Part shown: positions 31,909 through 61,047 of the stretch, piece by piece
Position numbering within the stretch: position 1 is the first letter of the stretch
Layout: each line of letters opens with the position of its first letter
Assembly: GCA_038205015.1 (NCBI GenBank)
Contig: JBBRCK010000006.1
Coordinates: 1-63,855 of the forward strand
Length of the DNA stretch: 63,855 bases
Reading direction: 5' to 3'
DNA from: Candidatus Levyibacteriota bacterium
GTDB lineage: Bacteria > Patescibacteriota > Microgenomatia > Levybacterales > UBA12049
The notes under the pieces: generated by a model
Told to the model about the DNA's origin: nothing
Database searches by the model: none
What the model saw: only the letters and a program-made list of their open reading frames with translations
Program-made: the position numbers and the translations under genes

Positions 31909-32369
31909 TAATTTTGATTTTTGTTTAAAATTTCTTCCAATTTCTTTGAATCTAAGTAGTTTGGGTCTAAAAGCAAAGCTTTTTTGTTAAATTTTTTTGC
32001 TTTATTAAAATTTCCTAAATTATATTCTAAAACCGCAACTCTAAAATATGCATCTTTGTAGCCTGAATATTTATTTGTAACCGATGTCCAAAAATTAATT
32101 TCACGTTGGATTTTTTCACGCTCTAAATTAATTTCGTAAGCTTGGTTAAAGTTTTTATAAACCTTAAAACTGATTAAACTTATTCCTAAAATTAAAACAA
32201 ATATTACTAATATACCTAAAATTATTGAAAAATAATAAAATATTTTTTTAACTTTAGGTTGATTTTGCAATCTAATCGATAAATTTTTGAATTTTTTAAA
32301 TAACTTATTCTCGGTAATTCTTCGGTAAATACTCGGGAATTGCGAGGCTAAGGCGTTATTTTTACTCAT
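31902..32369 (-). CDS. Single-TM protein with a C-terminal TPR
   Basis: YSGYKDAYFRVAVLEYNLGNFNKAKKFNKKALLLDPN. Confidence 0.65.
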   Translation of the reverse strand: MSKNNALASQFPSIYRRITENKLFKKFKNLSIRLQNQPKVKKIFYYFSIILGILVIFVLILGISLISFKVYKNFNQAYEINLEREKIQREINFWTSVTNKYSGYKDAYFRVAVLEYNLGNFNKAKKFNKKALLLDPNYLDSKKLEEILNKNQNYY

Positions 32370-34473
32370 AAATTGGCCACTCTGATATCATTAGGCTCTC
32401 CCCCTCTTTCCACAGTATGTGATAAATCTCCTCTGTCACAAATGGCATAAATGGATGAAGAAGTTTTAAAATTACCAAATATGAATTCTTTAAGACGGAA
32501 TATGAAGAGTTATCTATTCTGTTTTTAACATCTTCTATGTAAATATCGGCGAAAGTATGCCAGGCAAATTCATAAAGGTTTTGAGCAGCGTGGTTAAAAT
32601 CATATTTATTAAGTAAGCTTGCTACCTCTTTTGCCAGCTGTTTTATTTTTTCACTCATCTCGTTATCATTTTCATTTGTTATCTTTTTTTCTGATTCTAT
32701 GTAGTCTTCGGGCTTAGTCATTTCGATAAACCTAGCCATATTCCATAACTTATTGGTAAACTTTCGCATCGCTTCAAGCTTAGGATAAGATAAGGACTGA
32801 TCATTCCCAAAAGCTGTGCCGTAAATAAGCGCAAAACGCACTGCGTCGGCTCCATATTGATCAATTAGCTCTATCGGATTAATTACGTTCCCCTTGCTCT
32901 TGCTCATTTTCTTGCCTAGAGGATCATTGACTAGGCCATGTAGCACAACATCTTTAAAAGGAATTTGCTCCCCTATCCTCTCTACTCCTTGTTTTTTCTG
33001 AATATAAATTCCAAGCATTACCATTCTGGCCACCCACCATGGCAAAATGTCATACCCTGTTTCCATTACGTTGGCCGGATAAAACTTAAGACTATCGGTA
33101 GTTTTTAAAGTAGCGTAGGGCCATTGTCCTGAAGAAAACCAAGTATCAAAAGTGTCTTCGTCTTGAATCATTTTTCCCGAGCATTTCCCGCATTTTTCCC
33201 GAACTTCCCCGGCTGTCACTTCCCACTGCCCGCATTTTTCGCATTTAAAGGCTGGAATTCTTATTCCCCACACAATTTGGCGGGATATATTCCAATCTTT
33301 AATATTTTCAAGAAATTGTAAGTATCTTTTTTCAAAATCCTTAGGATAAATCTTAATCTCTTCTTTTTTAACTACTTCTATTGCCTGTCTTGCTAAGGGC
33401 TCCATTTTTACAAACCACTGCTCTAAAGGGAGCGGCTCAATTGGGTTTTTACATTTATAGCAAAGGCCAATTCTATGGACATAATTTTCATCTATTTTTT
33501 CAACTAGTCCTTTTGCCTGCATATCCTCAACCACTGCTCTCCTAGCTTGCTTAATATATAAACCTTCGTATTTACCAGCTTTTTCATTCATTTTGCCGTC
33601 AAAATTTATTACTTGAACCATTGGCAAGTCATGCCTATCAGCTACTTCAAAATCGTCAAAATCATGAGCCGGAGTAATTTTTACAACACCTGTACCAAAT
33701 AATGGATCGACAAATTTATCGGCTACAACTTTTATTTTTGATTTTCCCAATACCGTTTCAATATCCAATTCTTTGCCGATATATTGCTGGTAACGCTTGT
33801 CATCCGGATGAACCGCCACGGCCGTATCTCCAAACTTTGTTTCCGGCCTAGTAGTTGCTAAAATTAATGGACCATACTTAATGTAATAAAGAGGATTTTG
33901 TCTTTCTTCATAAATTACTTCTAAATCTGAAAAGCTGGTGCCATCATAAGTACAATAATTAACTAGCCTTTTTGCTCGATAAACTAAACCATCGTCAAAT
34001 AATTTTTTAAAAGTGTCATAAACAATTTCTATAACATCTTTATCCATGGTATATTTTTCCCGGCTCCAATCAAGCGAGAATCCAAGTCTTCGAAGTTGTT
34101 TTTCTATCCCCCCTCTATTTTCATCAACGTAGAGTTTAATCATCTTAAATAGCTCTTCTCTGGTAAAATCCAAGCGCGACTTCCCTTCTTCTCTAAGTTT
34201 TTTCTCAAAAACAAACTGCGTTTCTATGCCTGCATGATCAGTTCCAGGAAGCCAGAGTGTTGATAATCCTTTCATGCGGTGATATCTAATTAAAATATCT
34301 TCTACTACATACATCGCGTGGCCAAAATGAAGCGCTCCGTTAGCATTGGTAGGAGGCAAAATTATTGAGTATGGTTTTCCTGTGGGGTTAACTTCGGGCT
34401 TAAAATATCCTTTTTCTTCCCAAGTTTTATAGATTTTCTCCTCAACGTCTTTATTATTATAAACTTTGTCCAT
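32362..34473 (-). CDS. valS: Valine--tRNA ligase (no C-terminal coiled coil)
   Basis: HFGH (HIGH), GTDHAGIETQ, TTRPET, DWNISRQIVWG, KMSKS, LHPFMPFVTEE. Confidence 0.95.
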   Translation of the reverse strand: MDKVYNNKDVEEKIYKTWEEKGYFKPEVNPTGKPYSIILPPTNANGALHFGHAMYVVEDILIRYHRMKGLSTLWLPGTDHAGIETQFVFEKKLREEGKSRLDFTREELFKMIKLYVDENRGGIEKQLRRLGFSLDWSREKYTMDKDVIEIVYDTFKKLFDDGLVYRAKRLVNYCTYDGTSFSDLEVIYEERQNPLYYIKYGPLILATTRPETKFGDTAVAVHPDDKRYQQYIGKELDIETVLGKSKIKVVADKFVDPLFGTGVVKITPAHDFDDFEVADRHDLPMVQVINFDGKMNEKAGKYEGLYIKQARRAVVEDMQAKGLVEKIDENYVHRIGLCYKCKNPIEPLPLEQWFVKMEPLARQAIEVVKKEEIKIYPKDFEKRYLQFLENIKDWNISRQIVWGIRIPAFKCEKCGQWEVTAGEVREKCGKCSGKMIQDEDTFDTWFSSGQWPYATLKTTDSLKFYPANVMETGYDILPWWVARMVMLGIYIQKKQGVERIGEQIPFKDVVLHGLVNDPLGKKMSKSKGNVINPIELIDQYGADAVRFALIYGTAFGNDQSLSYPKLEAMRKFTNKLWNMARFIEMTKPEDYIESEKKITNENDNEMSEKIKQLAKEVASLLNKYDFNHAAQNLYEFAWHTFADIYIEDVKNRIDNSSYSVLKNSYLVILKLLHPFMPFVTEEIYHILWKEGESLMISEWPIYE

Positions 34474-34505: not shown

Positions 34506-35810
34506 TCAATTAGTTTTGGTTAATTTAAATCCCCTGGTTTTTATGGTTTGGATTTCGAAATTATTATCTTGTTGTTTTAATTTATTCCTAACTCTTTCAA
34601 CTAACTTATCTATTGCCCAATCTGAAATCCCCAAGCCGGTTCCCTCGGGCCACACCGCTTCAATTATTTTTTCTCTTTCGCAAATTTGATCAAATTTATT
34701 TTTTAAGTATTCAAAAAGCATTAACTCTTTTTTACTAAACTCATTAGTATTGTCTTTTGCTTCTCCTATTGCTCGCTGTTTTACAAAATATGCAAAAAGA
34801 GGACTAAAAATGATTAATTTACTATTTTCTTCTCTAACCAAGCCTGCTTCCCAAAGATAGGCAGTTTGTTTTTTTGCCTCTTTGGTGATAATTTCACTTT
34901 TATCTATTTTTGATAAAACCGTTTGCTCATTAGTATTTAAATTTTCCCAAAGTTCTTCAGATTGTAACCTGATTCGCTCATCGTTAATTAAATAATCAAA
35001 TAAATCCTTTTTTGTATTAATTTCTTTGTAAGGCTCATGCAAAGCAATAAGTCCAAGTAATAAATATTGAAAATGCCCATCTACTAATCTTAATAATTCT
35101 TTTTCCAAATCCTTATTTAATTTTAGTTGGTAACGGCTTTTATAGGTTTCATAGATTATCATTGTATCCTCTTTTTTTGTGAGACCTATATAAACATTTT
35201 TATAAACTAGTGCCAAAACAGCTTGTGAAGAAATATTGGGAAATACTCTATCAAACGGAACAAAACTGGTAAAAACAAAGCTTAATTTTTGATGAGAGAA
35301 ATTTTTTAATCCTTCCAAATTAGCAAATAATTCCGGCGTAGCTGCTTGCCCAAGCCTGTCAAAGCGTATAAAAAACATTGTTGGTAGACAACCTTCCTCA
35401 ATTATTTTTCCTATGGCCAGCCTTACGCTGTCAATTGTAAAAAACAAATCTTTTAGCTGTATGCTTTCCAAGAATAGATCCCTAATCTCATTCTTTGTTT
35501 TTTCGGAAAGCGTAGAATCATCTACCGCATCAACAATCCTTTTAAGTGTTAGGACCCAAAATGGCATAATATCGCATTCAAATAAATCATTTAAGTCAAC
35601 TGTTATAAATATATGTTTTTCCCAATTATTAACATAAGTTTTATATACCTCAGGCTGTTTAAGAAAAAACCTTAAAAAATTACCTATTCCCACTCTTTTT
35701 ATACCAAGCAGAACAATTGAGTGCCGTCCATTTAAATACTCGGCCAAAGTCCTGGCGTTATTCTCTTGAAAAGAAAGTGGATATTTAATTGCCAGTAAGT
35801 CTTGCGCCAT
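34506..35810 (-). CDS. Degenerate P-loop NTPase fused to an OmpR-type winged HTH (paralog 1)
   Basis: Walker-A-like GIKRVGIG lacks Lys; C-terminus EREKIIEAVW...IDKLVERVRNKL...IQTIKTRGFK. Confidence 0.7.
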   Translation of the reverse strand: MAQDLLAIKYPLSFQENNARTLAEYLNGRHSIVLLGIKRVGIGNFLRFFLKQPEVYKTYVNNWEKHIFITVDLNDLFECDIMPFWVLTLKRIVDAVDDSTLSEKTKNEIRDLFLESIQLKDLFFTIDSVRLAIGKIIEEGCLPTMFFIRFDRLGQAATPELFANLEGLKNFSHQKLSFVFTSFVPFDRVFPNISSQAVLALVYKNVYIGLTKKEDTMIIYETYKSRYQLKLNKDLEKELLRLVDGHFQYLLLGLIALHEPYKEINTKKDLFDYLINDERIRLQSEELWENLNTNEQTVLSKIDKSEIITKEAKKQTAYLWEAGLVREENSKLIIFSPLFAYFVKQRAIGEAKDNTNEFSKKELMLFEYLKNKFDQICEREKIIEAVWPEGTGLGISDWAIDKLVERVRNKLKQQDNNFEIQTIKTRGFKLTKTN

Positions 35811-35859
35811 AAAGTATTATCATTTTAAATGCCGACTCAACATTTAGCAATAAGCTTTA

Positions 35860-35899
35860 CTGTCAGAATTTTGTCAGAAAAGTGTCTCTTAATCGTCAA
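35860..35899 (+). promoter_or_regulatory. Pho-box-like array of four 11-bp-phased GTCA repeats
   Basis: CTGTCAG (35860), TTGTCAG (35871), GTGTCTC (35882), TCGTCAA (35893); ends at the -35 position of the 35933 promoter (TATTAT 35921-35926). Confidence 0.6.
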
Positions 35900-35932
35900 G
35901 CCAAATAATATGAAAGACTATATTATGTTTCT

Positions 35933-36115
35933 ATGACAATAGAACTTGGACCAAAGCCGGTACAACTAGAAGGCAACCCTAGCGAGGAACGAAAAGTACC
36001 AAGATATCAATTAATTGGCGATGAGAGAAAACGACCAGTTACAATTGTTGATATTCACAGAACTATTAAGCCTGAGACCAGCCCTCATCTAATTCAAATC
36101 GTAAATTTTAAATAA
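35933..36115 (+). CDS. Small hypothetical protein (60 aa)
   Basis: TATTAT-6-ATG; divergent from wHTH paralog 1. Confidence 0.55.
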   Translation: MTIELGPKPVQLEGNPSEERKVPRYQLIGDERKRPVTIVDIHRTIKPETSPHLIQIVNFK

Positions 36116-54539: not shown

Positions 54540-55877
54540 TTAGTTTGCAAACTTAAATCCCCTACCTTTAACGGTTTGAATATATTTTGGTTCATTAGGA
54601 TTGTTTTCAATTTTTTTTCTAAGCCTAAAAATTAACTGATCTAGAGCTTGGTCGGTTACTCCAAGTGTAGTTTTTTGTTCTCCCCAGACTGCATTAATAA
54701 TCTCTTCTTTTTCCAAAACTTTGTCTTTTTGGGTTAGTAAAAATTTAAATAACTTAAACTCCAAAGAGGTTAAAAGATCAGAAATTATCAAATCGTTTTT
54801 TTTAATTTCATTGGTGTTTTCGTCAAAAATTATTTCCTCTTTAGCTTCTACAATACTAGTTTTAACGACAACTGTATGTTTAACAAAATCTTGGAAAAGG
54901 GGAATTGTTGGTGCTCCGTTAAAACACAGAAATATATTTTCCAAGAAAATCGGTTCCTGTTTTTTGTCGATAAAATATTGTTGTTCGGATGGATTTAAAC
55001 TGTTCCAAATTGCAAAAAGTGAGCTTCTAATTGGCCTTTGACTTAATAGATAATCGATTAATTGTCTTTTATTTTCCGGTAAGTTTTTATCCAAAGACAA
55101 AATTGTTTCAAGACAAAGAGTAGTTAATCTTCCATGCCCAGCAGTTAGAGTAATGGTTTCATCGATTATTTTCTTCTCTATTTTTTTACCGGTTACTTTT
55201 TCTAAATGCGAAATTCTAAAATCTAAGCCCACTTTATCTAAAATGGGTAAATATATTATTCTTCCGGCAACATATTCGAAAAAATCCGCAAAAAGAGAAG
55301 GTTCAAGCAAGTCTTCCAAGGGTCTACTTAAAGAAAAAATAACAGAGAAGTGATATTTTGCCCTATTTCTTAAAACCCTGAGATTGGCAAAAAATTCAGA
55401 CGTTACCGTTGGAACATACTCTTCGAACCTGTCAAAAAGTAAAACTAACGTTAGATTTTTTTCAATCGCCAAATAATCAACGGTTTTTTTAAGTCCCTGA
55501 AATAAAACCAATTCGTCGTTAAACTCAACACTTTCTTTAAAGATTTTATTAATCTCTAAGTATTCGTTTTTTAATCCTCTTTCTCGCAACGAATCTAAGA
55601 TTCCCAAAAAAATGAACTTATTAACGTCGGACATAGGTTTTTTTCTGATTTCTGAAAAATTTAAAAGGACAAAATGGAAGTTTTTTTGTTTTTCACTCAA
55701 ATGTTTAATGCGGATGTTTCTGTTGTAAGAGAGAAGTCCCAAAAGGTTTGACCTACCAACGCCGGCAACGGAAACTATTTGACAAGAATTTCCTTCTTGG
55801 ATAAAAGAAATAATTTTAGTAATTTCTTCAAATCTGGTGGTGTCGGGGTACAGGCTTTCAAAGTGTTCAAGCTCCAT
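54540..55877 (-). CDS. Degenerate P-loop NTPase fused to an OmpR-type winged HTH (paralog 2)
   Basis: SVAGVGRS (Arg for Lys), LLFDRFE; LEKEEIINAVW...ALDQLIFRLRKKIE...IQTVKGRGFK; ATG 55877 follows TATAAT by 6 nt. Confidence 0.7.
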   Translation of the reverse strand: MELEHFESLYPDTTRFEEITKIISFIQEGNSCQIVSVAGVGRSNLLGLLSYNRNIRIKHLSEKQKNFHFVLLNFSEIRKKPMSDVNKFIFLGILDSLRERGLKNEYLEINKIFKESVEFNDELVLFQGLKKTVDYLAIEKNLTLVLLFDRFEEYVPTVTSEFFANLRVLRNRAKYHFSVIFSLSRPLEDLLEPSLFADFFEYVAGRIIYLPILDKVGLDFRISHLEKVTGKKIEKKIIDETITLTAGHGRLTTLCLETILSLDKNLPENKRQLIDYLLSQRPIRSSLFAIWNSLNPSEQQYFIDKKQEPIFLENIFLCFNGAPTIPLFQDFVKHTVVVKTSIVEAKEEIIFDENTNEIKKNDLIISDLLTSLEFKLFKFLLTQKDKVLEKEEIINAVWGEQKTTLGVTDQALDQLIFRLRKKIENNPNEPKYIQTVKGRGFKFAN

Positions 55878-55925
55878 TAATCTATTATAGTTCATCTTCC
55901 ATTAATCTTAAACAATGCCGAGTGT

Positions 55926-55958
55926 TTGTTAGTTTTTTGTAAGACAAATATCAAGCTG
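55926..55958 (+). promoter_or_regulatory. Degenerate 11-bp-phased repeats at the -35 position of the 55990 promoter
   Basis: TTGTTAG (55926), TTGTAAG (55937), ATATCAA (55948); same distance to the -10 (TAATAT 55976) as in the 35.9 kb array. Confidence 0.4.
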
Positions 55959-55989
55959 TTTTCCTGCCTTTGACATAATATGTATCCAT

Positions 55990-60150: not shown

Positions 60151-61047
60151 TTAGTAATTAATCACGGTTCTAATTACTTGACAAGAAGTTGGGCCAATAG
60201 GTGGTTGTTGGCAAGATAAGCCACTTGCCATATTACTTACAGGTAAAGCGACGAGTTTTAGTGGGTCTTCATTGTAGGAATCTCTACGAGTAAAGTAATC
60301 TGGCATGGCCTGTTCCCATCGGCCGTTTTTTAACACCATATTCATAGGGTCTTCGTCTGAAAATTGCTGTGCAGGCAAATATGGAGTTGCATCGGGTGTA
60401 AGAAGCCACTTCTCAACTACCTTGGGGCTGGGATAGGTACTGCCTGGTATTGGCCAAAATTCATTTTCTTGAGAAGCATAATCGAACGATAAAGTGGTCG
60501 TAAATGAATCAGTTATGCCTTGTTGTTGATCCGTAGTGGTTAGTTCCTTGCGGACCGAGGTAAGCTTTATATTTTCTATGGTCAGAGTACCTTGAGACTT
60601 AATTCCCTGAGCCTCGGTAGTGGTATAGCTGTTAGCATAATATACACTTCCTCCAATCCAATTTATAACTAGGGGCGAATCTTGGGTTTCACCCTTTTTT
60701 ATAGTCTCGACGTTGTGCTTCCATGCGTCAGGATTCTGTATGGAAGTGTTTAAATAATAGAAAATGGCTGGATAATTCTGTTTTTGATTTGCATTAAGAA
60801 AAGAGAACCAATAATCAAATCCCGCGTTTGAAGCTTGTTGCTCCATCGAAAGAGGTGCTTCGGTTGGTTTTTGAGTTTCAATTACTCTTTGGGTTGGTTC
60901 AGCGGTTGGGATTGCCTCGGATGGAATTTGAGTTGGTTTTGGACTTTGTAAATCTGCAGAGCAAGCGCCCACAGCCAGTGTTGCAGCTAGCGCCGTAGAA
61001 GCTAATTTAACTCTCCCATCACGAATGAATGATTCAATCCTTGGCAT
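60151..61047 (-). CDS. Putative lipoprotein with a Pro/Thr-rich linker
   Basis: LAATLAVGA-C lipobox; PKPTQIP...EPTQ...KPTEAP. Confidence 0.6.
   Translation of the reverse strand: MPRIESFIRDGRVKLASTALAATLAVGACSADLQSPKPTQIPSEAIPTAEPTQRVIETQKPTEAPLSMEQQASNAGFDYWFSFLNANQKQNYPAIFYYLNTSIQNPDAWKHNVETIKKGETQDSPLVINWIGGSVYYANSYTTTEAQGIKSQGTLTIENIKLTSVRKELTTTDQQQGITDSFTTTLSFDYASQENEFWPIPGSTYPSPKVVEKWLLTPDATPYLPAQQFSDEDPMNMVLKNGRWEQAMPDYFTRRDSYNEDPLKLVALPVSNMASGLSCQQPPIGPTSCQVIRTVINY

Follow-up and report, generated by a model that had tools for sequence, protein, structure and literature searches.

Four phased direct repeats in the gap between two divergent genes very probably constitute the operator of the adjacent regulator, P0001, an AAA-like/OmpR-type protein devoid of a receiver domain, and the 60-aa gene on the other side of the gap is probably activated through them. 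To the combined reading, in which the array is the operator of P0001 and switches on the 60-aa gene, we assign a probability of about 0.7. Judged by its recurrence in related genomes, the array is a conserved cis-regulatory element; the identity of P0001 as the binder, the sign of the regulation and an oligomerisation through the AAA+ module are what we infer beyond this. The window (the whole stretch of DNA that was analysed, 63,855 nt) comes from a 727-kb assembly of 34% G+C in 21 contigs, and the array occupies the 122-bp gap between the divergent ORFs P0001 (minus strand) and P0002 (plus strand). The features to which the text refers are the following.

34506-35810, minus strand: regulator P0001, 434 aa, with a predicted degenerate AAA+ module, a lid/winged-helix region and, at residues 357-430, an OmpR/PhoB-type winged helix
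35822-35850, minus strand: the regulator's own putative promoter, TTGCTA-17 nt-TAAAAT, ending 11 nt before its ATG
35860-35866, plus strand: repeat 1, CTGTCAG, candidate distal site for the small-gene promoter, centred at about -70
35871-35877, plus strand: repeat 2, TTGTCAG, 11 bp past repeat 1
35882-35888, plus strand: repeat 3, GTGTCTC, a weak or auxiliary site
35893-35899, plus strand: repeat 4, heptamer TCGTCAA, the proximal site
35893-35901, plus strand: repeat 4 in its full form, TCGTCAAGC, spanning about -40 to -32 of the small-gene promoter, which is the position of a -35 box
35921-35926, plus strand: -10 box of the small gene, TATTAT, 6 nt before ATG 35933
35933-36115, plus strand: small ORF P0002, 60 aa, hydrophilic, with the motif RPVTIVD, the presumed regulated gene
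54540-55895, minus strand: P0001 paralogue, AAA-like/OmpR-type, about 25-27% identical (27% in the aligned region)

The heptamers CTGTCAG, TTGTCAG, GTGTCTC and TCGTCAA follow one another with a period of exactly 11 bp. The sequence-only reading had described four repeats in 11-bp phase, which do lie at 35860, 35871, 35882 and 35893, and a genome-wide scan showed the array to be single in the 727-kb genome: GTC repeated four times at an 11-bp period occurred once in the whole genome, with about 0.003 occurrences expected from the frequency of GTC, and TGTCAGAA-N3-TGTCAGAA was also found once. When all triplets were scanned for four-fold 11-bp phasing, TCC was the only other G+C-containing word in the whole genome. 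A weight matrix trained exclusively on other genomes, with the window's own site left out, gave 47 bits to the array and at most 8 bits to every other position; the full-array matrix did not find a second site anywhere in the genome, so that the regulon of the source genome would consist of the array site alone. The best further match to repeats 1-2, at window position 60725, lies inside a coding ORF and was taken as chance. GTCAAGC followed by a -10 box was also considered as a general promoter element; it has 6 matches in the genome, and only the one at the array comes with the repeats. The array is real and not the product of chance.

The promoter of the small gene was as first described, with TATTAT 6 nt before ATG 35933 and AAGCCA (35898-35903) where a -35 box would fall with a 17-nt spacer; across loci, this position reads AAGCnA. 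Among the genome's promoters that have a -10 box close to the ATG, TTG is present at -35 in 30% (17-nt spacer) and the G of a TGn extension in 40%; the small-gene promoter has neither TTG at -35 nor TGn, which fits a dependence on an activator. Genome-wide, TAnnnT ends 5-11 nt before the ATG in 48% of the ORFs of at least 200 aa versus 16% at random, and SD-like motifs are not enriched (10% before ORFs versus 12% at random positions). A -10 box as close as 6 nt to the ATG is thus usual in this genome, which points to leaderless mRNAs. For the small gene, the transcription start is predicted at or beside the A of ATG 35933, which would yield a leaderless mRNA. Counted from a start at about 35933, GTCAAGC covers approximately -38 to -32 and the repeat centres fall near -37, -48, -59 and -70; the small gene's coding strand is the one on which the repeats read TGTCA. 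With this predicted start, the geometry of the array is that of an activator standing in for the -35 box. Two points against the activation model are that repeat 4 is one turn more distant from the -10 box than the proximal half of a Pho or SARP box, and that a conserved repeat in the -29 to -19 slot is absent from the 19 loci aligned below.

The same geometry was examined for repression, in which the adjacent regulator would bind the array and act mainly as a repressor, of the small gene or of its own gene or of the two together, with a signal relieving the repression. Repeat 4 overlaps the -35 position of the small gene, divergent regulator-target pairs are often autorepressed, and since leaderless -10-only promoters are common in the genome, the small-gene promoter may possess the basal activity on which a repressor would act. 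The absence of both auxiliary promoter elements argues against such a role, as do the orientation and phasing of the repeats, which match those of OmpR-family activation sites, and the position of repeat 1, which is clear of the regulator's own -35 and -10 boxes. We consider a mainly repressive action unlikely. The putative regulator promoter has a recognisable -35 box, an equivalent promoter of the form TTGMYA-17-TA(C/A)AAT is present at orthologous loci, and repeat 1 starts 9 nt upstream of that -35 box, at about -48 relative to this promoter; autoregulation is thus plausible, and the array probably also tunes the expression of the regulator. A second regulator promoter, with minus-strand GCTTGAC as its -35 box, was considered and rejected, because the TGACAA/TGACAT found 17 nt downstream lacks the essential A at position 2.

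Comparison with relatives showed that the array is part of a larger module, TGTCAG-N5-TGTCWG-N16-GTCAAGC-N19-TAnnnT-N6-10-ATG, found in register at 19 orthologous loci of other Levybacteria and also in other families of the class, where it separates the regulator gene from a small ORF that diverges from it. Read from the regulator outwards, most orthologous loci have, in this order, the start codon of the regulator, the -10 and TTGCTA-like -35 boxes of its promoter, a spacer of 8-10 nt, TGTCAG-N5-TGTCWG, then GTCAAGC (its GTC 33 nt past the GTC of repeat 1), 19 nt, TAnnnT, and the ATG 6-10 nt further on. The alignment comprises 19 loci that match GTCA-N29-GTCAAG in exact register, with one match in each. 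Repeat 1 reads GTCAG in 19/19 loci, of which GTCA is forced by the search pattern and only the G that follows it (G9) was free to vary; this free G is itself kept in 19/19. The columns of repeat 2, which the pattern does not force, are T in 18/19, G in 19/19, T in 17/19, C in 18/19 and G in 16/19. The final C of GTCAAGC in repeat 4 is present in 17/19 loci, and the TAnnnT of the small-gene -10 box has T in 16/19, A in 19/19 and T in 17/19. Repeat 3 retains a full GTC at 7 of the 19 loci, and elsewhere R-T-Y alone remains; the closest relatives (L021-L023) keep all four GTC. Sites 1, 2 and 4 are almost invariant, and site 3 is weak outside the window's clade. The four-repeat array of the sequence-only reading thus stands for repeats 1, 2 and 4, and for repeat 3 it is reduced to R-T-Y beyond that clade.

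Spacing is conserved together with sequence. The distance from repeat 4 to the -10 box is 19 nt in all 19 loci, and it is kept at 19 nt in two loci in which the array is shorter (L004) or longer (L028) by exactly one 11-bp unit; L026 and L029 show shifts of 1-2 bp. The window and L021 share about 90% of positions from the -35 box of the regulator to repeat 4, both included, amid diverged flanks to which the small ORF belongs, which is a classical phylogenetic footprint. Conservation of the repeats upstream of orthologous gene pairs was what the original proposal had been staked on, and the array is indeed kept beside orthologues of 41-81% identity, with its orientation and its 19-nt distance to the -10 box. 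It is absent in about one third of the orthologue loci (L011, L013, L015, L020, L032 and L035). One further locus upstream of an orthologue (L003, G002:C3) was left out of the scoring, its intergenic stretch being a run of N. These data also bear on whether the repeats are fortuitous, or a phased A-tract curvature without sequence-specific role, for which the A+T-rich genome and the A-runs after repeats 1-3 could be cited. Such an explanation has practically no probability, given that the array recurs in the same place in more than 20 genomes with so few expected by chance, and given that its G/C positions are invariant and its A/T spacers variable.

The distribution of the array follows that of the regulator. 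P0001 orthologues of 41-54% identity are present in about 30 of 60 related genomes, and closer relatives, with 81% and 63-64% identity, occur in metagenomes, where the gene order DUF4012, small ORF, regulator, ValRS is kept. We searched related genomes with the strict pattern GTCAG-N5-TG-N20-22-GTCAAG, using the reversed pattern as control. The strict pattern gave 21 matches in 20 of 61 genomes and the reversed control none; all 20 genomes with a match carry a P0001 orthologue, about 17 of the matches lie in its divergent upstream region, and genomes without an orthologue gave 0 matches among the 61 relatives, counts to be read as descriptive rather than as a statistical test because the genomes are interrelated. 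In a class-wide sample of 301 genomes, full-looking arrays recur in other families, immediately upstream of an orthologue (41-46% identical to P0001) in 4 of 5 genomes checked. The reversed control matched 7/301 genomes in this sample, so class-wide matches that lack the second TGTC are probably noise. One pattern match (G009:C1) is intragenic and was set aside as a stray.

Some relatives contain extra copies of the cassette away from the regulator. One (L047, G032:C3:2920) precedes an 87-aa ORF with RKPVQIIDL, which shares the PVxIID motif, another (L048, G002:C3:29803) precedes a 342-aa ORF, and a third (L046, G053:C5:24312) precedes a tiny ORF upstream of a Sua5/TsaC-like gene. In the G002 and G032 copies the ATG lies within a few nt of the -10 box; the G053 copy keeps the 19-nt distance to the -10 box and has its first ATG 19 nt later. 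Such operator-promoter cassettes suggest that the regulon is larger in some relatives. The genes around the locus in the window code for a 703-aa valyl-tRNA synthetase, a DUF4012 protein, ribosomal protein L25, RNase H and a polysaccharide flippase-like protein. The valyl-tRNA synthetase (32362-34473, minus strand) matches positions 2-696 of an 860-position model, its C-terminal extension missing; in several relatives, its gene follows immediately after that of the regulator.

The C-terminal part of P0001 (residues 357-430) matched Trans_reg_C (PF00486) in Pfam with 42.9 bits for a cut-off of 26.2, the family profile matched the solved structures of ArlR, CovR, WalR, PhoB, ToxR and CadC, and BLASTP against E. 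coli PhoB gave E = 7e-10. In the BLASTP alignment, the invariant Arg406 and Arg408 of P0001 align with PhoB Arg201 and Arg203, and Lys424 with Arg219. We take Arg201 and Arg203 to belong to the recognition helix of PhoB and Arg219 to its wing, with roles known from the PhoB-DNA structure. In 30 homologues, the recognition helix SDWAID[KR]L..R.R does not vary, which matches the invariance of the TGTCAG core. P0001 gave no match to the receiver domain (PF00072), and its N-terminal 340 residues gave no strong match in Pfam; weak AAA_35 matches were obtained for 7 of the 30 homologues.

The AlphaFold2 model of P0001 (mean pLDDT 82, pTM 0.73) was compared with known structures using Foldseek. A probability of 1.0 was returned for 2qen (an archaeal Walker-type ATPase), 2fna (SSO1545), Orc1/Cdc6 (1w5t, 2qby), ORC4/5 and MalT, with E = 4e-6 for the MalT structure 8bob_C; the best fold matches of the N-terminal 340 residues were archaeal Orc1/Cdc6 and PF01637-type ATPases. 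The profile match of the family to 2qen spans the P-loop segment. According to the model, the N-terminal fold is Orc/Cdc6- or STAND-like AAA+, comprising the P-loop core, helical lid and winged helix of the AAA+/STAND fold but neither the Walker A (GxxxxGK[ST]) nor the Walker B (hhhhD[DE]) motif: the P-loop of the family reads G36-I-K-R-V-G41-I42-S/G43, with Ile42 at the lysine position in all 30 sequences, and Walker B reads FFIRF-D151-R152, in which the second acidic residue is missing. The module is a decayed ATPase, for which ligand binding or a role in assembly only would be possible. Of the NTPase-wHTH protein first proposed, the AAA+ fold and the OmpR-type winged helix hold and the P-loop lysine is lost; its description as a receiver-less wHTH protein agrees with the AAA+ N-terminus and the missing receiver match.

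Only two proteins of the genome have an OmpR-type (Trans_reg_C) domain, P0001 and its paralogue, both without a receiver, and the genome's sole receiver domain is a stand-alone frame of 129 aa; a response regulator with a DNA-binding domain was not found in the genome. The winged helix of the paralogue is of the P0001 type (75.9 bits to Trans_reg_C), so that the paralogue, or a regulator of a non-OmpR type, might be thought to bind the array, P0001 being merely a syntenic neighbour. We regard this as improbable. The paralogue is more widespread among relatives than the P0001 orthologue and is present in most of them, those without an array included; TGTCAG repeats were not seen upstream of paralogue genes; and across families the array tracks the P0001 orthologue and not the paralogue. 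As to the paralogue itself, its P-loop reads GVGRSN, with Lys replaced by Arg, and its true start is probably Met7 (MELEHF...), 6 nt downstream of a TATAAT. The paralogue gene diverges from a 769-aa ORF, whose promoter in the gap 55896-55989 is TTGACA-17-TAATCT, and a conserved ATATCAAGCT element is common to the window paralogue and other paralogue loci.

At about 10 loci of relatives, small ORFs of 54-130 aa are found in the place of P0002, 111-127 nt from the start codon of the regulator, and at the other loci larger genes take their place. No global similarity was seen in a multiple alignment of the small ORFs, and an exhaustive HMMER search of 1.8 billion representative proteins did not find a full-length homologue of P0002. 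Matches of P0002 to large TPR_12/CHAT/NB-ARC repeat proteins consisted of 4-10 summed weak stretches over residues 18-46 and were judged spurious, a probable by-product of summing over repeats. The frame is maintained within one genus, at a dN/dS of 0.19-0.28, and N-termini are alike in the window's clade (e.g. KPVQLEGN and KNVGLGGN). The motif PV.[IV].[DE] is present in 5 of 13 small ORFs with 0.05 expected, an enrichment that is indicative only because the motif was defined after the data were seen. From these sequence features, the small ORFs appear to be real genes. The 60-aa orphan of the sequence-only reading belongs to a group of hypervariable small ORFs, among which PVxIxD is shared by some.

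We propose that the four repeats point to the same side of the helix, in a gap flanked by divergent genes that are both essentially leaderless, and that copies of P0001 would bind them in head-to-tail order, each by its OmpR/PhoB-type winged helix, with the degenerate AAA+ module in the place of a receiver domain serving oligomerisation or signal sensing. The copy on repeat 4 would fill the position of the missing -35 box and recruit RNA polymerase to TATTAT, so that the 60-aa gene would be turned on much as PhoB and SARPs turn on their targets. A bolder version supposes that the dead AAA+ module replaces the phosphorylation-driven dimerisation of receivers and that P0001 builds an ORC- or DnaA-like nucleoprotein filament on the four phased sites, one protomer per helical turn, which fires both divergent promoters, with the hypervariable small protein acting, via its PVxIxD motif, as a partner or anti-activator of the filament in a feedback. 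This version we hold to be rather unlikely; if true, it would describe a self-contained two-gene switch used instead of two-component signalling in one class of CPR bacteria.

For activation of the small gene by P0001, the interest lies in how little is known of transcription control in CPR/Patescibacteria, which have very few regulators, cannot be grown alone and have provided almost no experimental knowledge. A published description of the P0001 architecture was not found in the literature, promoter studies in Patescibacteria included. The array offers a sharply delimited cis element (about 45 bp), a promoter geometry and a single candidate binding protein, and since the module is kept in more than one family of the class, direct testing in vitro or in E. 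coli is possible. A rapidly evolving family of small proteins is indicated as the regulated output. The logic by which OmpR-type repeats replace a -35 box would operate here with a decayed Orc/STAND-type module instead of a receiver domain, an arrangement that would be a third one beside response regulators and SARPs.

One close parallel to the array is the Pho box, whose consensus is CTGTCAT-N4-CTGTCAY. In both systems an OmpR/PhoB-type winged helix goes together with directly repeated TGTCA, which has a period of 11 bp and is read along the coding strand ahead of the -10 box, and the promoter has no -35 box; repeats 1-2 (CTGTCAG-AATT-TTGTCAG, 35860-35877) reproduce the two 7-bp TGTCA-type repeats and the 4-bp A/T-rich spacer. 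The label Pho-box-like given earlier is apt for this pair of repeats and fails for the rest: the proximal site is 19 nt from the -10 box in 19/19 loci, one turn further than the approximately 10 nt of a Pho box, and has the form GTCAAGC; there are four sites here and two there; and the genome has no cognate PhoB/PhoR. A genuine Pho box under phosphate-starvation control by a PhoB/PhoR two-component system would be suggested by the likeness of the repeats, but it is virtually excluded, since two OmpR-type domains and a stand-alone receiver leave no PhoB and the target is a small hypervariable ORF without a phosphate link. P0001 is not a two-component response regulator either, its N-terminus being AAA+ in place of a receiver with a phospho-acceptor Asp.

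AfsR, which couples an OmpR-type domain to a STAND module, is the activator of afsS, a gene for a small protein; SARPs have the winged helix at the N-terminus, ahead of a BTA domain, and their 3' repeat is 8 bp away from the -10 box (PMC10936776). The likeness of P0001 to AfsR and the large SARPs of Streptomyces extends to the OmpR-type domain with a STAND-type nucleotide-binding module, to the small-protein target and, for the afs box, to 11-bp direct repeats that overlap a -35 region in which the -35 box itself is poor. AfsS has 63 aa. Unlike these proteins, P0001 has its winged helix at the C-terminus and has lost the P-loop lysine, a TPR domain was not detected, and a BTAD match was found neither in P0001 nor in 30 homologues, so the order of an N-terminal OmpR-type domain and a BTA domain is not that of P0001. 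Unlike SARP boxes, the array extends upstream and not downstream of the -35 position, and repeat 4 is one turn further upstream than the proximal repeat of either Pho or SARP boxes.

MalT and the LAL regulators also combine a STAND/AAA+ module with a C-terminal DNA-binding domain, and MalT binds multiple sites of the same orientation in the shared divergent control region malEp-malKp. MalT is a protein of about 900 aa with a LuxR-type helix-turn-helix, an active ATP site and a sensor domain, whereas P0001 has 434 aa, a degenerate ATP site and a C-terminus that is Trans_reg_C and not GerE/LuxR. Set beside AfsR as well as MalT, P0001 is a small protein, and its P-loop is dead. Orc1/Cdc6 and the PF01637-type ATPases (2qen, 2fna) share the AAA+ core, lid and winged helix, but keep the GK[ST] P-loop and have no OmpR-type domain, and Orc1/Cdc6 act at replication origins, the array being at promoters. 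With no receiver, no BTA domain, a C-terminal winged helix and another spacing to the -10 box, the element is placed outside the Pho and SARP classes; by analogy, its logic is like that of a Pho or SARP box, phased direct repeats of the OmpR type replacing a -35 box.
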